Below, piece by piece: positions 1 to 16,461 of a DNA stretch of 64,000 nucleotides. The notes below the pieces were generated by a model. It was given only the letters and a program-made list of their open reading frames with translations, did no database searches and was not told the origin of the DNA. The DNA is from Podarcis gaigeae (lineage: Eukaryota), in the NCBI GenBank assembly GCA_964106915.2, contig OZ066919.1. One strand, given 5' to 3'. The stretch's first letter is position 1. The number at the start of each line of letters is the position of its first letter. A program made the position numbers and the translations under genes.

Positions 1-2487
1 GCCTTCTTCGGGCCTTGAGAGCTCACGGCCAGGGTCCGCTGCGACCCGAGCTGTTGAAGAAGTACCTGCCTTCGAGGGATGAAGAAGAGGTGGGTTGAGG
101 CGTGGCCACGTGGTGGAGGGCAACATTCGAACTTGGCCGGGCTGTGAACTTACTAACAACCCCACGAGTTGGCGGACTGATGGCCAGCATGCAGGGTTTG
201 GAGATGAGGACTCCATCTCTGGTCAGCCACGAGAGCTAGGTGGCCTTGGCAGATAAATCATAAGGGATGAATTGGGAGAGACCTATGCTGCTTTTTTAAT
301 CCTGGCAAATCGTAGTTAAAGGGGAGTAATTGCAAACTTTCTGACTTGAAGAAATACCCAGTTTTTATGTCTTCAGAAAGTAGGATACTGTCTTTCCCAA
401 AACATGTATGTCCCCTAAGTTGTGCTGCTCTTGCAGATCATAGCATTTGTGGAGCACCTGAAAGAGCGTGTGGCAAAGGAAGCAGTCAAGGAACAATATC
501 AATATCGCCAGCGTAAACAGAAGGATGCTCCTATTCCAGCACCTATTGAGGTATGAGAGTTTTTAAAGTGTAGGTAATGTGATATGGCACAACATAAGCT
601 AAGGGCTATTCATACAACTGACACTTCCTTTTTTTTTAGATATGGACAGAGTTAGCTGAGAAATTGACAGGTCCCCTTGAGGATGCTGTGGCAACTGCTT
701 TTTCCCAGGTAACCTTTCCCATGATCTTAATAAGATAGATATTGTTCTTGGTGTAGTAATTTAAGATATCTGTATGTCTCCATCTGACAAAATGTCTCTG
801 AAATACATGGCTCTGTCCTGGTTCTTTTGGTTCTTGTATAACTTTTCAGACAGATTTAATGCTGGGAAATGTATTTGGTTTACTAGAGAATCCCTGACTG
901 CTTGGCATACAAAGTCCATACTTGATTGTGACTTTTTCTCTACTCATTAGGTTTGGACAATTGCATCTACTGAGCCACTCACCTTGCTCCATTCCGTGCC
1001 TCCAAAGTCAGTGGTGATAAAGAATTCTCAATGTACATCCCAAAATCTTCATAGTGAGAGTAGGAAATCCAACGAAGAATCTCATGAACCAACTGTATCA
1101 TCAGATGTAGAGGAAATAGCCCCTGCAGAAAACAGTGGGTTCCATGTGGACTTTGAAAAGATCTACAAGTACCTTTCTGTGATCTCACGTGGCTGTAAGG
1201 CACCTGAACTCCCACCAGGTGGTAAGTCGGTGTTTGTGTTGGACCAAGATGAATTTAAATAACAGGCAGCTACTGGAAGAAATGTTTCTGCATTGGAATG
1301 TGACTCCAGGTAACCAAGACATCTATTACATCATGCCTACTGTATTCTTGGTGCCAAGCAAAAACATTTCTCCTTATGGAAGCTGCCTTATTGAGTTTTA
1401 TTTGCAATCATTCCATCCCTTCCTTTTTATTCTGTTGCTTTTTCTTTATTGTGCCATTTTTGTCATCTGCTTTGGAGTTCTATTTCAGCTGAAGGGCTCG
1501 ACACTAAATCTTAAAAATGCTTCCCAGAAATGGAGCATCCCCTAGGACTGGAAACACTATGTGTCCTGCCAAAAACTGTACTCCTTCTGCCAAAACTTCC
1601 AACAGATTTAGTGCTACTAAAAGCAACAACCACCTTGCTGGAACCACCTTGCTGGGCATAGTTGGGTAACTTTTGAGTTTACTGTTGTGGATGATGGGTG
1701 GGATTTGGGGGACTAAGGAAAACATTTCAGAAGGGAATTGTTTGTTATGTTTCTCCCCACCCCCCCAGTGAAAATATGAGTGGCCCGTGAGCGTGGAGAC
1801 AGGGAGAGTTTTCCTAGGTGAGAGGAAGCAGCAACTTGTCATATAATGTAAAACAGATAAAAGGTTCTCATCAGATTTCCAGTTTTTAAAATAAAACTTC
1901 TTATATAGAAAGTTATCCTTAACGTCTAAGACATAATTTTTAAAAATCTAAAATAGCTTAGCTGTTAATGTGAGAAAATTTACTACATTTGTTACACATG
2001 TTGGAGGCAGGGTGAAGTTTCAGAATCTGTAACTGGAGAACAGGAGATAAAAAAATCCTACCTATGTTTCTGCCAAAGTGAGTGTAGCCACTCTCCTCAT
2101 ACATTTTGCTTGCTTTCTGCAGAGTCAGCTGTGGTCCTAGATTTGCTACTGTCACTGCCAGAAGAGCTGGGCTTTCTGGACTTTAAGAAGCTGAAGAGTC
2201 ACATGCACAAATGTTACACAGAGTTGAACACCCACTACACAGGTGAAAGAAGCAGAATGAAAGAGGGCAACCAGCCTGTAAACAATAATGGGGAGCTATT
2301 TCCGCATGTGCAGCCAGCTACTAGTGGCTTACCAGAACAAGAGGAGAGTAGTTGTTCTCCTACCACTTCCAAAGATGATGCAACTTCTGCCTCTGCCATG
2401 GACTGGAAGACTCTGGGTATCTGCCCTTTGAATCCATTCTTGTTTCCTTTAGCTATCCTTGCACGTAAAGAAGAAAGCTTTGACTGA
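1..2487 (+). CDS. SNAPC2: snRNA-activating protein complex subunit 2 (5'-truncated by window)
   Basis: GT-AG exons <1-89, 437-550, 640-708, 951-1221, 2123-2487 join in phase. Translation contains PAPIE|IWTELAEKLTGPLEDAVATAFSQ|VWTIASTEP, VDFEKIYKYLS, ESAVVLDLLLSLPEEL and GICPLNPFL, matching recalled human SNAPC2 motifs. Confidence 0.93.
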
Positions 2488-3707
2488 GGGAACTCGATTC
2501 TGTGCTGCCCAGTAATGAACTATGTCCTCTCATAACATGTGAGGGAAGACTAAACAAGCTTGCTGAGCTTTCCTTAGCCATGATCCCCCTCATCGTAGCA
2601 TGGGGGTTAAGCAGCCTGACCTGCTCTTTTACACCTTGGCTCATGAGTATGATACTTGTTTTGTATTAATATTATATGTACACTGAAGTCTGGTCTTACT
2701 ACTCCACGACAGCTGCTAGATCTTATTTGGCCAGTTGCTATGAAGCAGCTCAGAGATGGCCTTGAGTGTTAATCTTGACCTTCGTCTTCTACAGATCATT
2801 GCGGTTAGTAAAATAAGTGATGTTGGATATCATCCCTGAGTCACAGAATAGTCAAATTATTTTGTAATAACCGTTTTTAAAAAAATATATATGGACCTGA
2901 AAAATATCAGTTGCAAAGCTGTAATAATCTCATATTACTTGCCAAGTGCCTTTTGCCTTCTACCTGTAACATGCTCACCAGGGGTTACCTTCAATAAGTT
3001 TTGAGGAGCTATAGAAGCCATGAAGGCTTTAACTGAAATAAACTAGGGAAAGTTAACTTATAACACGCTTAGGAATGTTACTGTTAAGCAATGCTTGATG
3101 ATGTAGTATATCTTCTTGGAAGAAATGCCCCCCATCTACCACTAACACAATACTGAACTGTTATAGTTGTAGGCACTGAAGAATACAAAGATGAAGTTAC
3201 TATGTTATAGCATAGAAGCATAAATGCTACAGCAGCCTGTGTCAAAACGTAAACCCTCCATGTAGCATTAGTACTTATTTTATTAAGGAGATATTAGTAT
3301 GGATATACTTGGACTCATAACAGCTCATAGCAGTATTTGTCATAAACTGGTGGGACTGGGGAAAGAAAGCATACTTTGTAACATAACATAACTAGCACCT
3401 TAAGTAAATATTACTTCAAACATAGATTAAATGCACTTCTCAAAATCTGAATTTTAACTGACCCATGTTAACTTGGGAAGGAGTTCCTAAATTGGCAACA
3501 TGCATATATAGTTTAACAAATTACTACAATTTAGCATCTTTGCTTTATTTATTTTATTTGAAGAGGCCTCCTGTAGAGAATGTAAGTAACAGGCAAGTCC
3601 TAGAAGACTAGTGTGCCATCTTTGTAAACTCAGACTCTTGGCATGTCGTACACGCATTATGTGCTGCACTGAGAGCAGCAATTTCATTCACTTTTATGTC
3701 CTTTAAA

Positions 3708-3727
3708 AATAAAGTGCATTCTTTATT
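3708..3727. terminator. back-to-back poly(A) signals between convergent SNAPC2 and PIF1
   Basis: AATAAA (+) at 3708-3713 and AATAAA (-) at 3722-3727. Confidence 0.45.
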
Positions 3728-4033
3728 ATTCAGTGTGTCAAACTCTTGCCATAGGTACAATACTGTCAATGCTGATGTTTGAATTAAAAGACTTCATGAA
3801 GGTGTGATAGCAGAACATCTTACTACCATCCTAATAACAGAGTTTGGTTAAAAAATTGATAGCCTGTGGAAAATGTTTCCAGGATGTTGTTCTACTGCTA
3901 GAAAACAGAATGATCCTGGAAGTATCAGGAGCTGCAGTGCAGAAAATCCACGAGCTGATTCTCCATGGAAGAAGTTTGCCACTTAGTGGTGTAGATTCAA
4001 TAAAAGTACAAGGAGCAATAAAATATGTAAAGT

Positions 4034-7000
4034 TCAGGCAGCTTCTTCATTTTCTTTATTGGCTTGAATAGAGGAGTGCAGCAAAGCCTAAAGAACAAAA
4101 GTAACAAATCATACACAGCAACTCACACTTTGTATGATTCCCCCAGGGGTGGAGGAAGGTGTCGCCACTGAGGGGGGTGACAAAATGCTGGGCGGCACTC
4201 ACCGTGGGGCCTGCAACAAACCTGAGCCATGTGTCTCTCCTGGGAGTGACACAATGGCTTGGGCGCCCACAGGCTCCACACTGCCCCAAACGGTCCGCCT
4301 GCCACCTCTCAGCTGTAGGGCGGCTGAGTGGGAGGAGGCAGGCAGACTCCTTGGAGGCCCCACAGAGCGTCCTGCCCCGGCTTGGGTGGCCCCACCCCTG
4401 GGCACAGGGCATGTGTGCCTCCCCAGGCACCCAATCAGCTTGCTCCGCCACTGTGATCCACTGGGGGGGGGGGGGATTTCTGCCATATGGAAGGAAGGGG
4501 CAAGGATTCACTATGACCTTCCACTACTTTTTTCTTTAATAAAGTATGGGCTTGTAACAGTATATTTTTCTTTGGAGAGGGAAATGTAGGGAAGATACAT
4601 TTTGCAATTAGGGCTGCAGACAGATAATCACTCAAGAGCATTGTGTCTATTTCAGGGTTACAGAGGAATGGTGGCCAGATATCCCTAATTCACAATGCCA
4701 TTAGTAACCTGTGGCCCTTGTTCCAGGTTTCTTTATTGCCCTTCTCCCACCCTCCTCCCTTTGCAGTTTATACAACACAAAATCAGAATGTCTTAAGTTG
4801 CAGATGGTTATGGTAGCCTAGTGGCAGATTATCACTTTACCTGGCTTAGAAATTTTTCTCTCTTCAAGTGCTTGTAGAACTGCAACACATATGGATTGGC
4901 TCTCACTACCTTGGGATCAAAATCCAGAACACGAAGACCTGCAAGGCTACGTGCTCGAGAAAGTGCTACATAAGCCTGGCCAAATTCAAAAACACGAGCC
5001 AAGGAAATCTCAACGCAGTCCAGAGACATACCCTAAGAAAAGAGAAAAAGTCAGGAAGCAGATACTCCCTAGTTATTCTGATAAGTATGTGCACCCCCAG
5101 TACAGTAAAGTACCTATATATTTTATGTATGATGCTTGATTCCACAAAATGGGTACCAGGCAAATAGGAAGAATTAACACTGCTGAACAGCATTTCCACA
5201 GTTCCCTCACCCTTTATATTTTTGTTTGCAGGGTGGTGTGATTTTCCAGTGTTTCTAGAATAGCCACATGTTGCAAGGAAAACAGCTTGAGTTTGATTGG
5301 TGTACAGGATTGGTCTGCCTAGATTCCACTGACTTATCGGGGGACAAGACAAATGAGCAGATTCTTACAGATCCTGCATAGATGTGGAGCCCAAGTGGAA
5401 ACATCCCAGAACCATAGTAACTTTGGTGGGAGCCTTAGTACAGATAAACCTAGTTAAACACAAGTTCCTTACAGACGTCCCATTATGGACCATTTTTACT
5501 GTCTTGAGTTCTTGTACAGAATATCACACAATCTATCACTAACCTGGCTCTTATGGATGGAAATGGCCCAGGCAAGTTTTAGCGGTAGCTGCTGGCGACT
5601 CAGATAAATTCCTGCTGGTCCCTTTAAAACCCATCGTTCCAACCCAACAACATTAGTGACGCCACACAGAAATCTCACTTTCGGTAGCCCTGTAGAAAGA
5701 GAGTCAAGTCAGAACTCTGATCTCCTATGCCCAGGAGTCAGGGGCAGGTAACCTCCCAAATATCTATTGTCTTTAAGGAGATACTGCAAGGCAGCCTAGA
5801 ACTCATCCACTTGAGTTCATGCAAATGGGATGCTAGTAGAATAACAGCTCATATACAAAAAACTGGATGGCAAAGAACAGCAACTGTGTCTCAAAAAATC
5901 CACCACCTCTGGCACAGTGCAGAGGCACCCACCATAGTTTCATTGTGAATCTATAAGAGTTCAGACACAGTCCGAAGAACACCCAGTCATGGGTGATAAG
6001 TGCATCTGTCAGAAACTAACCTTTTCCTTCTGTTTCAAATCCAATCACAACTCCACGAGCCCCATTCACAAGACCTTGGGACACATCAAGATTCTTAGTA
6101 AGCATCACCTAGTGAAAGAATGTAAAAATTACTAATGAAGAAAAACAGCTTTCACCTGTCCAGTCAGTCGACTTTATTGTACACAGTCAGCATTAACAGT
6201 AGAGTCTCAAGAACTGCCACTGAAAACAAACAAGAATGTCCCCACCCTGTTCCTCGGGTAGGGAAAGCCTCATACTTGTTTGGATGTTATTCACTGTATA
6301 CACTTTTATCCTGCTTTTCAAGAAGGCAGCACACAAGGTAGATAACCAAACATACAGTGAAATATTAAACACATATATATGAGACCGGGGGGAAAACAGT
6401 AATCCATCTAATAAAGTGAATAATGTGTTGAAAATGGTAACTGGCCTCAGTTAAACTTTAATGTTACAATACAATCTCAGTTAAACAGCATGACAGATTT
6501 GCCACCCATATTTAACAGCTGGGTGCAGCTCTTAAAAGACAAGGACTGTGGCATTTGGCATGGCCTGACTTCCCAGTTTTAAGGTTTAAAAGTTATCAAA
6601 AGCAGTGCACAACCAACTCAAAGAAAGCAAATGGGAGCCACTAGGGTCCATAAGAGTATCATTTCACTCAGCTGATACTCTAGGTTCTGTCATGTGACGA
6701 TCTGTCCAACCTAGCCATGGCAGTGCAGGTAACAATTCCTGAGAAGCTATAATCAGTGCTAGCCAGCCACGCATTTGTAAGGGAGAAATCAGTACTGTAT
6801 TAATAGAATGCAAGGAGTAACTGAATTGCTCAGCAGGCAAAACACTGAGCACATATAAATAGCTTGCAGATGTGTCCAAGCCTATAGCTCTGACATTCCA
6901 AGCTAAGGTCAACAATTACCTGTAACTGCCACCATGACTCCCTCAAATGAACTATATAATAGTTCATGAGTGTATCTGAAGAAGTGTGCATGCACACGAA

Positions 7001-10000
7001 AGCTCATACCAAGAACTGACTTAGTTGGTCTTTAAGGTGCTACTGGAAAGAATTTTTTTTGTTTATATAATAGATATTTGTTATAGAAACCATTCATTTT
7101 ATGATTACTCTGCTTGCCTGCTCCTGTAACATCCAGTCAGCATTTGCCTGTAACTCTTTATGCTGTCATATTCTGCATCAAGAGGACTCCAGTATCCTAG
7201 GGTTGGGGACCCCCTTTTGTGAGACCCCATGGGAAAGGTGGAGAATACAGGACTGTGGCGCTAGTGTGAGAAGCAGATAACATAAAAACCTTTCTTCCCC
7301 CCCCCCCAAAAAAAAAGCAAAATTCCATTGCCTACTAAAGAACCGCCTCTCGCTTGGGCAATGCTCACCTGGGCACCTTGCTTAAGTTCAATGTTGCTGC
7401 TTACTGGACACTGTGCATCAAGAGTTTTCACCAGTACAGGGTCACTATCCACTGCCTTGAAGGACCTTCGTTCTCCTAGAAGACAGACAAGATGTAAAAA
7501 ACTTGCATCCCTCCTACCTGATGTGTTTTGAAAGGGTTTCTTCCCAATAGCTGAGCTGCATGTAGGAGGCTCTGTTTCATCCTTCCACAGCCCCAGGTGT
7601 TGTGAGCTCCAAGTATTAGGCTCTGCACACTATTCTGAAAGCATAATTCTGTAAAATTCCAGAATTCCATACAATACATATCATAATATGTTTCCCACTT
7701 CTGCAGATATCAGCAACAGAAGAAAATATTATAAAATAAATAAATGTGTCCTTGTATTCACCTATCAAAAAGCGGTGGCAAGAATATCCGGACTGGAAAA
7801 CTTAACTATTGGTGTCAGTATTGCCTAATTTTATAATGGTCTCATGTTGTTTTATTCAGAAAGAAGAGGGGCAGGGCAAGTTCCCAAGTGTTGGTTCCCA
7901 GCTCTTAGCTGAAAGTCTGTCTCTAAAAGGAAAGGGCTACTTGCCACAGTTGGAGTCATTGCAGCATTCTCACCAGGCAACTCATCCAGCCTTCTAGCAT
8001 TTGTGAGCTCCACATCATCCTTGTGCGTGCACAACCGGGTAGCCAAGATTCCATCTTTCTCCACCCGATGGGTAGCTGTTAGAGTTAGCTGTCTGGTAAC
8101 CTCCTCTGTGCATCTGAATGGGGACAATTAAAATTAAGAAGACATTTGTATCTGATGAGAAACATTGAAGACCAAGAAGAACTATCAAGCTTGCTACTGC
8201 GCCCATTCAAATTACTTTCCATGAGAACATGAGGCCGTAACCAGCACCAAAACATGGAGATCAACTCTGCATCGCTAGTATATGAGCGAGGATGCTTGCA
8301 GCTGAAGGAATACCCCAGCAAGCACAGTACCTCTAAATTCCCCATTCCTCCACACCCAGTGTCTCCCAGCATTTCTCCATGGTTCCTCAAAGAGTACTTG
8401 ACCCAAATTTCAAACAGTGCAATGAGTTTAAAGGAAGTATTGGAGCAGGCCAGCCAACTTGACAGAAGCAGCTATATCAGCATTCAAATGTTTGGTGATG
8501 TCTCTCTAGACATAGGACTTCCACCCCAAGAGATTAGAATCTCCCCAGCCAGATATTCTGCTGGGGGAGGATGGCATCTCACCTGCCCAGGCGGACAGTA
8601 TGCAGAAGAGAAATGAAGTCCCTGTCAGTCTGCCTCCGCACCTCTGTCAGCTCCATGTTCAGGTGGATACACTTGCGCCAGCTCTTTGCCTGTGAAGGAA
8701 ACCCTTTGATCAAACTATAGCTCAGCCTGTGACAAGAGCATGCAGTGACAAAGAGCAACAGCAGCACACCTGGAAACAGAACCTGGGCTGCTCGGAGGAT
8801 TTGCTGACAGGAGGCAGCTGCAAAAAGTCTCCACATACGATGAGTTGGATTCCTCCAAATGGATCCTCACATTTCCTGACCGCTCTACCAAAAGAGAATG
8901 GAGACACCTTCAGGGAGCTGATTTTATTCTGATCCAAGAGAAAAGAAATGCAATGTCCTAGACCAAGGATGGGAAGCCTATGGCCCTCCAGATGTTGTTC
9001 TACTGCAGTTCCCATGATGCCTGGCTGTTGGTCATGCTGCTTGGGACTGATGGGAATTGTAATCCAAATGCATCTGGAAGATTCCCTGTTCCTGTTTCCC
9101 TTGCAACTCTAACACATGCTCTGCATATGCTAAGACAGAGTAACAAATATAATTCAGTTCTGCTTCTCTCTGTGGCTGCAAACCCCCCTTCTAGGACCAC
9201 ATTATACTTAAGCAGTCATTTTAAAACTATTGTGCATGGACAGGAGCATGGGAAACAGACAGGACTGAAGCACAGAGATGGCAATGCTGACTGGTGGCTC
9301 TGGGTGGACACTGGCCACAGCATTACCAAAACTAGATGTGGGACTGAAGAGAATACACGGGCAAAGCTGTGAGTGTGAGACTGTTTGCTGCAGAATTGCA
9401 TCAAGTGCCTGCTTAGGCAAAACTTTAGAACAACTATGCAATGTTTTGTCTTCTGCCCTATTAATACCCTCCCCAAAGCCATGTACACACAGGATTAATG
9501 CAAGTGCAGCAATATCCCCCAAAAGGAAGACTCCACCCACCTAGCTACTGCCTCCAGTTTATCAAAGAAATCCCCCTCCACCATAGAGATTTCATCTATG
9601 ATCAGATGGCGGCTGTTCAGCCATTGTTGCCGAATTCCGGGTCTCTGAGCCAGCTCAATGCACTGATGTAGGGAGGCCTTTCCTGACCCGATACCTATCA
9701 AAGGAGAGGGGAAAGAGTATGTCAGCAGTAACCCATCACTAGGCTCTTTTCCGCTTCCCTCCTTTCCCAGGATCCCAGTTACCTGCAAAGGCATGGAGAG
9801 TAGTGCCACCAATCTGACATGCTGCCACCCCTGTGCTGGCTGTGGCATAAGTGCTGTTTGGAGGCAGCGAGGCTATGATCTTTTTCAGCAGGTAGGATTT
9901 CCCAGTCCCTACAAAGAGAGCCCTTGTATTTAGAGGCACACAATCTAAATTTCAGTTTTACAATTACTCCAGCACCATTCATACTTCCCTTCAAAGCGGA

Positions 10001-15100: not shown

Positions 15101-16461
15101 GCCAGCTTGAGAGAATTGACCATGAAAGGCAGCATATGCATTGTGAAATAAATGAAGTATGTAAAAACTTCAGGTGCAAGCTAATAAGTTATGCAAGCAG
15201 AACAAACATTGAAATCAATAGTATATAAGCATAAGGTGAGAGCTGTTTCCTAGTTCTGCTGGATCTCTCAGCGGCGTTTGATACCATCGACCATAACATC
15301 CTTCTGGACTGTCTTGAGGGGCTGGGAGCTGGGGGCACTGTCCTACAGTGGTTCCGCTCCTTCCTCCTGGGCCATGTTCAGAAAGTGGTGGTGGGGGATG
15401 AGTGTTCAGACCCCTGGGCTCTCACTTGTGGGGTGCCTCAGGGTTCTGTCCTCTCCCCCATGCTTTTCAACATTTACATGCAGCCGCTGGGAGAGATCAT
15501 CAGGAGGTTTGGGCTGGGTGTTCATCAGTATGCAGATGATACCCAGCTCTACCTCTCTTTTAAATCAGAACCAGTGAGGGCAGTGAAGGTCCTGTGTGAG
15601 TGTCTGGAGGCGGTTGGAGGATGGATGGCGGCTAACAGATTGAGGTTGAATCCTGACAAGACAGAAGTACTGTTTCTGGCGGACAGGAGGCGGGCAGGTG
15701 TGGAGGATTCCCTGGTCCTGAATGGGGTAACTGCGCCCCTAAAGGACCAGGTGCGCAGCCTGGGAGTCATTTTGGACTCACAGCTGTCCATGGAGGCATA
15801 GGTCAAATCTGTGTCCAGGGCAGCTGTTTACCAGCTCCATCTGGTACGTAGGCTGAGACCCTATCTGCCTGCGGACTGTCTTGCCAGAGTGGTGCATGCT
15901 CTGGTTATCTCCTGCTTGGACTACTGCAATGCACTCTACATGGGGCTACCTTTGAAGGTGACTCGGAAACTACAACTAATCCAGAATGCGGCAGCTAGAC
16001 TGGTGACTGGGAGCGGCCGCCGAGACCATATAACACCGGTCTTGAAAGACCTACATTGGCTCCCAGTATGTTTCCGAGCACAATTCAAAGTGTTGGTGCT
16101 GACCTTTAAAGCCCTAAACGGCCTCGGTCCAGTATACCTGAAGGAGCGTCTCCACCCCCATCATTCTGCCCGGATGCTGAGGTCCAGTGCCGAGGGCCTT
16201 CTAGCGGTTCCCTCATTGCGAGAAGCAAAGCTACAGGGAACCAGGCAGAGGGCCTTCTCGGTAGTGGCGCCCACCCTGTGGAACGCCCTTCCAGCAGATG
16301 TCAAAGCGATAAACAACTACCTGACATTCAGAAGACATCTTAAGGCAGCCCTGTTCAGGGAAGTTTTTAACGTGTGATATTTTACTGTATTTTTGGTTTT
16401 TATGGAAGCCGCCCAGAGTGGCTGGGGAGGCCCAGCCAGATGGGCGGGGTATAAATAATAA

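Follow-up and report, generated by a model that had tools for sequence, protein, structure and literature searches.

Several described systems resemble the element reported here. Endonuclease-positive (EN+) Penelope-like elements (PLEs) of the Neptune and Nematis type carry an inverted 5' copy and an optional tail of 30-40 bp at one end (PMC8557442). Penelope of Adineta vaga has a TATA box and an initiator-like motif in its pseudo-long terminal repeat (pseudo-LTR), head-to-head inverted pseudo-LTRs, duplications of 8-10 bp and an optional one-sided tail (PMC3846280). PAc of Anolis carolinensis, an element of the Poseidon clade, has its tail in the first codons of the open reading frame (ORF), shows two preferred 3' ends and uses an uncut template; in vitro, its RNA was primed internally at two sites bounding the tail, and its protein cut and extended both target strands without need of ribozyme cleavage (PMC11167929). 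Minimal hammerheads of metazoan PLEs have a short helix I, an extra base between positions 9 and 10.1, a G10.1-C11.1 pair and a palindromic, vestigial helix III, and those of turtles and snakes were mostly single motifs 'probably related to truncated PLEs' (PMC4209133). Animal non-LTR retrozymes are short non-coding units with a type I hammerhead and a link to Penelope (PMC7229834; 10.64898/2026.07.22.740005). We analysed a 64,000-nucleotide stretch of the Podarcis gaigeae genome (contig OZ066919.1, assembly GCA_964106915.2; called the window here), in which a short insert with a hammerhead motif lies in an intron of PIF1. The insert is one of thousands of short front-end copies of a young Penelope-type retrotransposon, with its hammerhead motif. 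It is a 95-base copy of sequence lying directly upstream of the ORF of a young autonomous Penelope element. It was likely made when reverse transcriptase (RT) was primed inside the front end of the RNA of that element and ran to the start of that RNA, and is probably promoterless and inert.

A 10-mer, TATATAATAG, stands on either side of 101 bases (Table 1). The first-pass annotation, made from the sequence alone, had read this direct repeat as bounding a recent 101-bp insertion that lies antisense to PIF1, and had proposed a search for the empty site. Four runs were compared. The three from other organisms (X4, X5 and X6) contained an empty site with the 10-mer present once; their contigs omitted exactly 111 bases (6953-7063, the 10 letters fitting either side), and their flanks were only ~1-2% different from the window. 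The contig of run X2, from another sample of the window's organism, entered the insert without any difference. The repeat is a true target-site duplication, and because relatives with flanks this similar have an empty site, the insertion is very young. The antisense orientation was also confirmed. The size needs qualification: the repeat does bound 101 bases, but only 6969-7063 are element sequence.

We numbered the element from A6969 as +1, which places its ATG at +101. Bases 6969-7064 matched the two pseudo-LTRs of a long genomic copy, L244, at 97.9% over 97 nt and 96.9% over 96 nt, and since the ATG lies at +101, the insert is the predicted 5' untranslated region (UTR) of the element. A 32-mer of the insert occurred 7,115 times in the genome, a count of arms and not of insertions, and its reversed control did not occur. 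Longer copies reached upstream into an RT and a GIY-YIG domain. Among six long loci examined, L244 was intact with both repeats, consisting of a pseudo-LTR, an ORF of 910 aa and a second pseudo-LTR. This single ORF holds both the RT (RVT_1/PF00078 at 438-586, E 9.5e-12) and the endonuclease, a GIY-YIG domain at its C-terminal end (PF01541 at 808-856, E 7.8e-6). Direct repeats (pseudo-LTRs in partial tandem) flank the ORF in L244, L245 and L246. Penelope RT, which the first-pass annotation had suggested as the source of mobility, is most likely the maker of the insert. Uninterrupted ORFs from the first ATG were seen at two of the six long loci (910 aa in L244 and 915 aa in L247), and because of these ORFs the family may still be active.

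Protein P0001 carries CX4CxxC between the RT and the GIY-YIG match, and CX2-5CxxC between RT and endonuclease marks the Neptune and Nematis clades (PMC8557442). With RT and GIY-YIG in one ORF the parent is an EN+ PLE, and by the cysteine motif it would be of Neptune/Nematis type. No solved structure was related to P0001 at E<=0.01. Both the inverted 5' copy and the one-sided tail described for these clades are present in the family, and we noted no structural difference from the account in PMC8557442; what is added here, with the clade assigned tentatively by motif, is that the occurrence of one tail per pair is quantified (28/29) and that most arms share one 5' boundary.

The first-pass annotation had described the insert as essentially a ribozyme plus a tail. 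This description does not hold, as the T-run belongs to the 5' UTR of the parent: full-length copies have the same T-rich stretch, followed there by the tail and the ORF. The tail of other copies lies on the ORF side and runs from the T-rich site through the first 11-12 codons; of 41 tailed arms, 39 had their end between +129 and +136. Copies fall into two 3'-end classes, and in this, as in the position of the tail within the first codons, the family is like PAc. Unlike PAc, whose ORF starts inside stem II of the hammerhead (PMC11167929), the family has its hammerhead wholly in the 5' UTR. The insert itself is a single unit with neither inverted arm nor tail. Since the TATA box lies upstream of +1 and outside the insert, the copy in the window is probably not transcribed by itself.

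Table 1. Features of the insert and its host intron, with positions in the window
Feature	Position	Strand	Remark
Host PIF1 intron with insert	6109..7368 (boundaries approximate)	-	Flanking exons end GAQ / begin VMLTKNL
Left target-site duplication, 10 bp	6953..6962		Once at empty site in X4, X5, X6
Junction filler TTCAT	6963..6967	+	6959-6967 is the reverse complement of flank 6948-6956
Single G	6968	+	Native element base C; outside fold-back
Element-derived part, +1 to +95 of predicted transcript	6969..7063	+	5' UTR part of pseudo-LTR; stops 5 bases before ATG
Minimal type I hammerhead motif	6972..7009	+	Predicted cut after 7005
T-rich stretch, element-encoded	7053..7063	+	Proximal of two preferred 3' ends of copies
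Right target-site duplication	7064..7073		First T possibly element-derived

The hammerhead is a genuine minimal motif, and its ribozyme activity is predicted. Stem I is formed by 6972-6975 and 7006-7009 (GTAT/ATAC) and encloses CTGAAGA (6976-6982), an extra A (6983), a 14-nt palindrome as stem II (6984-6997), GAAA (6998-7001), AGCT (7001-7004) and C17 at 7005. The CUGANGA and GAAA boxes, the UH cut site, the extra base after A9, the G10.1-C11.1 pair and the palindromic 15.2-16.2 are all present, and these are the features given for minimal hammerheads in PMC4209133. The mapping in the first-pass annotation stands as it was stated, as does its assignment to the minimal, Penelope kind, which agrees here in helix I, the extra base, the 10.1-11.1 pair and helix III. 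Two results weigh against the motif. An Rfam scan of 6700-7300, of the type proposed in the first-pass annotation, found no hammerhead family at E<=10, and a 121-mer did not fold better than its shuffles (z 0.62). For the 47-nt motif, the hammerhead fold had -6.8 kcal/mol compared to a minimum of -7.8 kcal/mol, and a two-molecule fold preferred a 14-bp stem II duplex over the active core.

When the variable core position was set to U, a pattern search returned 43 matches, with none in controls. After leaving out the 11 matches with stem II of the young family, 32 older matches remained for the analysis of covariation. Helix I was paired in 86 of 128 cells (70.8 in shuffles) and helix II in 92 of 128 (65.9 in shuffles), values reached by 0 of 2000 shuffles in either case; these 32 rows represent few related families, and the contrast with shuffles is inflated accordingly. 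Compensatory swaps of T-A to C-G and of T-A to A-T were seen. Loci L249-L280 are older, decayed families that have the same minimal hammerhead core with different helices I and II, and some of these copies have AATAAA soon after the cut site, which the young family does not. The young family also differs from the hammerheads in PMC4209133 in that stem II is one perfect 14-nt palindrome, while the older families of this genome have ordinary loops. We considered the palindromic stem II as a conserved signal for dimerisation; this was not supported, as the loops of the older families are non-palindromic.

We then examined the 5' ends of copies. In the parent, a TATATA motif begins at -30 and +1 lies within TCAGT, an arrangement like that in Adineta vaga. 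Among 93 arms (the first 93 of 100 matches listed, in genome order, from the first 9.7 Mb of contig C1), starts fell at +1 to +7 in 41, at +8 to +20 in 19, at +21 to +36 in 4 and at the cut site in 1; a further 6 lay at -30 to -1 and 22 further upstream. This sharp start could in principle reflect ordinary 5' truncation, in which a long transcript is copied from its 3' pseudo-LTR and either RNA structure or a bound protein makes RT or repair stop preferentially where the hammerhead has its 5' edge, with no RNA ending there. In favour of this, the 5' cliff coincides with the start of stem I (+4), PLEs are described as heavily 5'-truncated (PMC8557442, PMC8969392), and 28 of the 93 arms do go further upstream. 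However, the first part of the structure that RT encounters would be at +41, whereas stops accumulate only once all of it has been passed. An RNA end would fit both the TATA motif spaced at -30 and the additional G seen at starts at +4, and the long copy at L243 also starts at this point and then runs onward into the ORF. We consider truncation of this kind unlikely.

Exact genome-wide counts of copies with a non-native base before a given position were 58 at -5, 371 at -1, 612 at +1, 2,605 at +2 and 64 at +38. Related subfamilies are pooled in these counts, some of the copies counted are point mutants (9 of 30 checked at +38), and the denominators differ, the +38 pattern covering a narrower subset of copies. 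Cut RNA as the main template was rejected, as 64 starts at +38 compare with 58 at the control position (different copy subsets). Upstream of 30 copies starting at +2 there was no shared leader beyond one T, and a spliced leader at the CAG before +3 was rejected, since these 30 copies share no upstream sequence. G preceded 15 of 22 starts at +4, and in each of the four runs the consensus loose letter next to 6972 on its left was also G. Because G precedes both the +4 starts and 6972, a copied cap would fit.

Several points count against a copy that ran to a defined RNA start, beginning with the mixed make-up of the exact counts. The start site itself is a predicted one, placed from DNA ends and motif spacing. 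At the largest peak, +2, the first 100 copies listed included 77 with a T in front (counted by eye), where the native base is A; this T does not fit a simple capped start, and may have been added to the RNA end without a template. At +1, G (157 copies) was rarer than A or T together (455). The roughly 28 of 93 arms that reach upstream of +1 indicate that longer templates are also used. Finally, for the anole element, which is of the Poseidon clade, the two strands were not seen to differ in start site in vitro (PMC11167929). At our locus, the single G at 6968 was possibly copied from the RNA cap, an origin that is not established there because of the 157 copies with G against 455 with A or T. 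A cap-derived G at +1 had been suggested by the best BLAST hits, which are biased by the query; the genome-wide counts do not favour G.

We next considered how the insertions are built. Sixty-one insertions had both ends inside their loci (3 further open-ended insertions were left out), and both orientations were present in 43, as head-to-head inverted arms, the other 18 being single. The first-pass suggestion that the antisense orientation is the one expected to survive selection is not supported, with 43 of the 61 carrying both. Duplication length peaked at 12 bp. Duplications of at least 11 bp were found in 32 of 43 inverted and 8 of 18 single insertions (p 0.04; lengths of 4-6 were taken as chance level, with no shuffle control). 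Both arms had an exact anchor in 29 pairs; 28 of these had a tail on one arm and not on the other, and no pair had two tails (p 5e-8); the remaining pair was a nested case with no tail. Unpaired arms were tailed in 12 cases and untailed in 11. Head-to-head arms, duplications and a one-sided tail are alike in Adineta vaga, where the arms are explained by self-priming on an antisense template (PMC3846280). Priming from both target strands fits the patterns seen here better than the self-priming model, which is still conceivable.

We infer the following course from promoter use to joining. Transcription would begin at ~+1 to +4 from the TATA/initiator promoter in the pseudo-LTR, and the GIY-YIG domain would make a staggered cut in the target, usually 12 nt apart. 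Each target 3' end would then prime internally, one at the T-rich site (~+95) and its counterpart where the tail ends (~+132). Both complementary DNAs would run to the 5' end of the RNA, and end-joining, accompanied by small templated insertions, would link them head-to-head. Of the two arms, the insert in the window would have kept the one from the T-rich site alone; the other target end would have been slightly trimmed and joined through fold-back filler. The filler TTCAT is likely a fold-back templated insertion during end-joining. Since the copy spans the cut site, the ribozyme of the template was uncut, as it is in PAc.

A stricter form of this course can be put forward tentatively, as plausible but somewhat doubtful: one ribonucleoprotein primes both strands of the 12-nt staggered cut, obligatorily one strand per internal site, with run-off where the uncut RNA has its capped 5' end, so that cutting of the template is not what the hammerhead serves for. 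If true, the head-to-head pseudo-LTRs, the one-sided tail and the solo hammerheads of reptiles would be products of one asymmetric, two-ended reaction, of which the genome holds thousands of records. Already known are the minimal hammerheads of reptile Penelope elements (PMC4209133), the one-sided tail with inverted 5' copies (PMC8557442, PMC3846280) and the TATA box with an initiator-like motif (PMC3846280). The reading with run-off and one site per strand was not found in the Penelope literature searched, which was covered in part; genomic ends of the anole element are mapped in the supplements of PMC11167929, and these could affect how new the 5' cliff is.

The first-pass annotation had also proposed a non-autonomous, retrozyme-like family. 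This would be a self-propagating unit, similar to a retrozyme or a short interspersed element (SINE), in which the hammerhead processes short RNAs, tandem or circular, that Penelope RT then copies in trans, and the insert is a monomer. A recent preprint reports retrozymes in four of five reptiles, derived from Penelope pseudo-LTRs (10.64898/2026.07.22.740005), and two observations in our data point the same way. Four head-to-tail units of 75 nt, each with a hammerhead, lie within one inverted insertion at L164 (G000:C1:9790483-9793504, ~1500-1860), and three of the four runs (X2, X5 and X6) showed joints leading from 7048 back to 6972-6974. This Penelope family may thus be a direct source of retrozyme-like arrays. 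However, a non-LTR retrozyme should contain two or more hammerhead-bearing units in tandem; this locus has a single unit, the window has one hammerhead match, and L164 was the one short multi-unit array among ~280 loci (overlapping and non-random). A SINE-like unit would be expected to bring a promoter or leader of its own and to end in poly(A) or a simple repeat. With respect to an upstream promoter or leader, the TATA box lies outside the insert and the 30 copies starting at +2 have no separate leader; the T-run is templated. The ends of the copies match the TATA-defined start and the tail boundaries and not the cut site, where starts are rare. Described retrozymes also occur as tandem arrays expressed as circles, mostly with canonical hammerheads (PMC7229834; 10.64898/2026.07.22.740005), in contrast to this single 95-nt piece with a minimal hammerhead that is near-identical to an ORF-bearing parent. 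The proposal was not borne out, and we regard a self-propagating unit as improbable.

The copy at this locus matters little in itself, being one of thousands of young copies with no sign of a host role. The family, on the other hand, is a large and nearly undecayed natural dataset on the formation of inverted pseudo-LTRs and tails and on the purpose of the hammerhead. The sharp start, the restriction to one tail and the scarcity of cut-site ends yield predictions for the published in vitro assay, for which an intact 910-aa copy is at hand. Copying from the front end of a Penelope RNA would explain many isolated minimal hammerheads of reptile genomes without a separate, ribozyme-only mobile element.

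Upstream of the insert, SNAPC2 lies on the plus strand at 1969-2484 (Pfam PF11035), and PIF1, identified by Pfam PF05970 matches in two of its upstream exons, is encoded by the minus strand. The two genes are convergent within 1969-5040 of the window, with their last identified exons ~2.4 kb apart. The first-pass annotation had pointed to plus-strand RNA, such as SNAPC2 read-through antisense to PIF1, as the only RNA that the ribozyme could cleave, and the insert might accordingly be a host-selected element with this function. The motif is intact, on the plus strand and downstream of SNAPC2. Nevertheless, it is absent from the three relatives with nearly identical flanks, and a copy this young would be expected to be intact. 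The 4.5 kb between SNAPC2 and the insert contain nine hexamers of polyadenylation type (AATAAA or ATTAAA). A published monomeric minimal hammerhead showed no cleavage (PMC4209133), that of the anole needed the protein of the element to cleave (PMC11167929), and two molecules of the present motif would rather pair through stem II. Cleavage of SNAPC2 read-through is not supported, and a host role is very unlikely.

Some other arrangements were observed. At L243 (G000:C15:61016500-61021800, ~860-1870), a unit of 870 nt runs from the element start into the ORF, where one G links it back to +4; the result is a short tandem with an internal deletion. At L091/L092 (G000:C1:4113000-4114900; 4134300-4135800), the inner arm of a nested insertion and a copy 21 kb away share their downstream flank, which suggests a template switch or flank DNA copied from a neighbour. 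Elsewhere in the window, a reverse-transcriptase fragment at 15235-15798 on the plus strand (PF00078, E 2.3e-26) showed no similarity to the Penelope element by blastn and is probably another retroelement.

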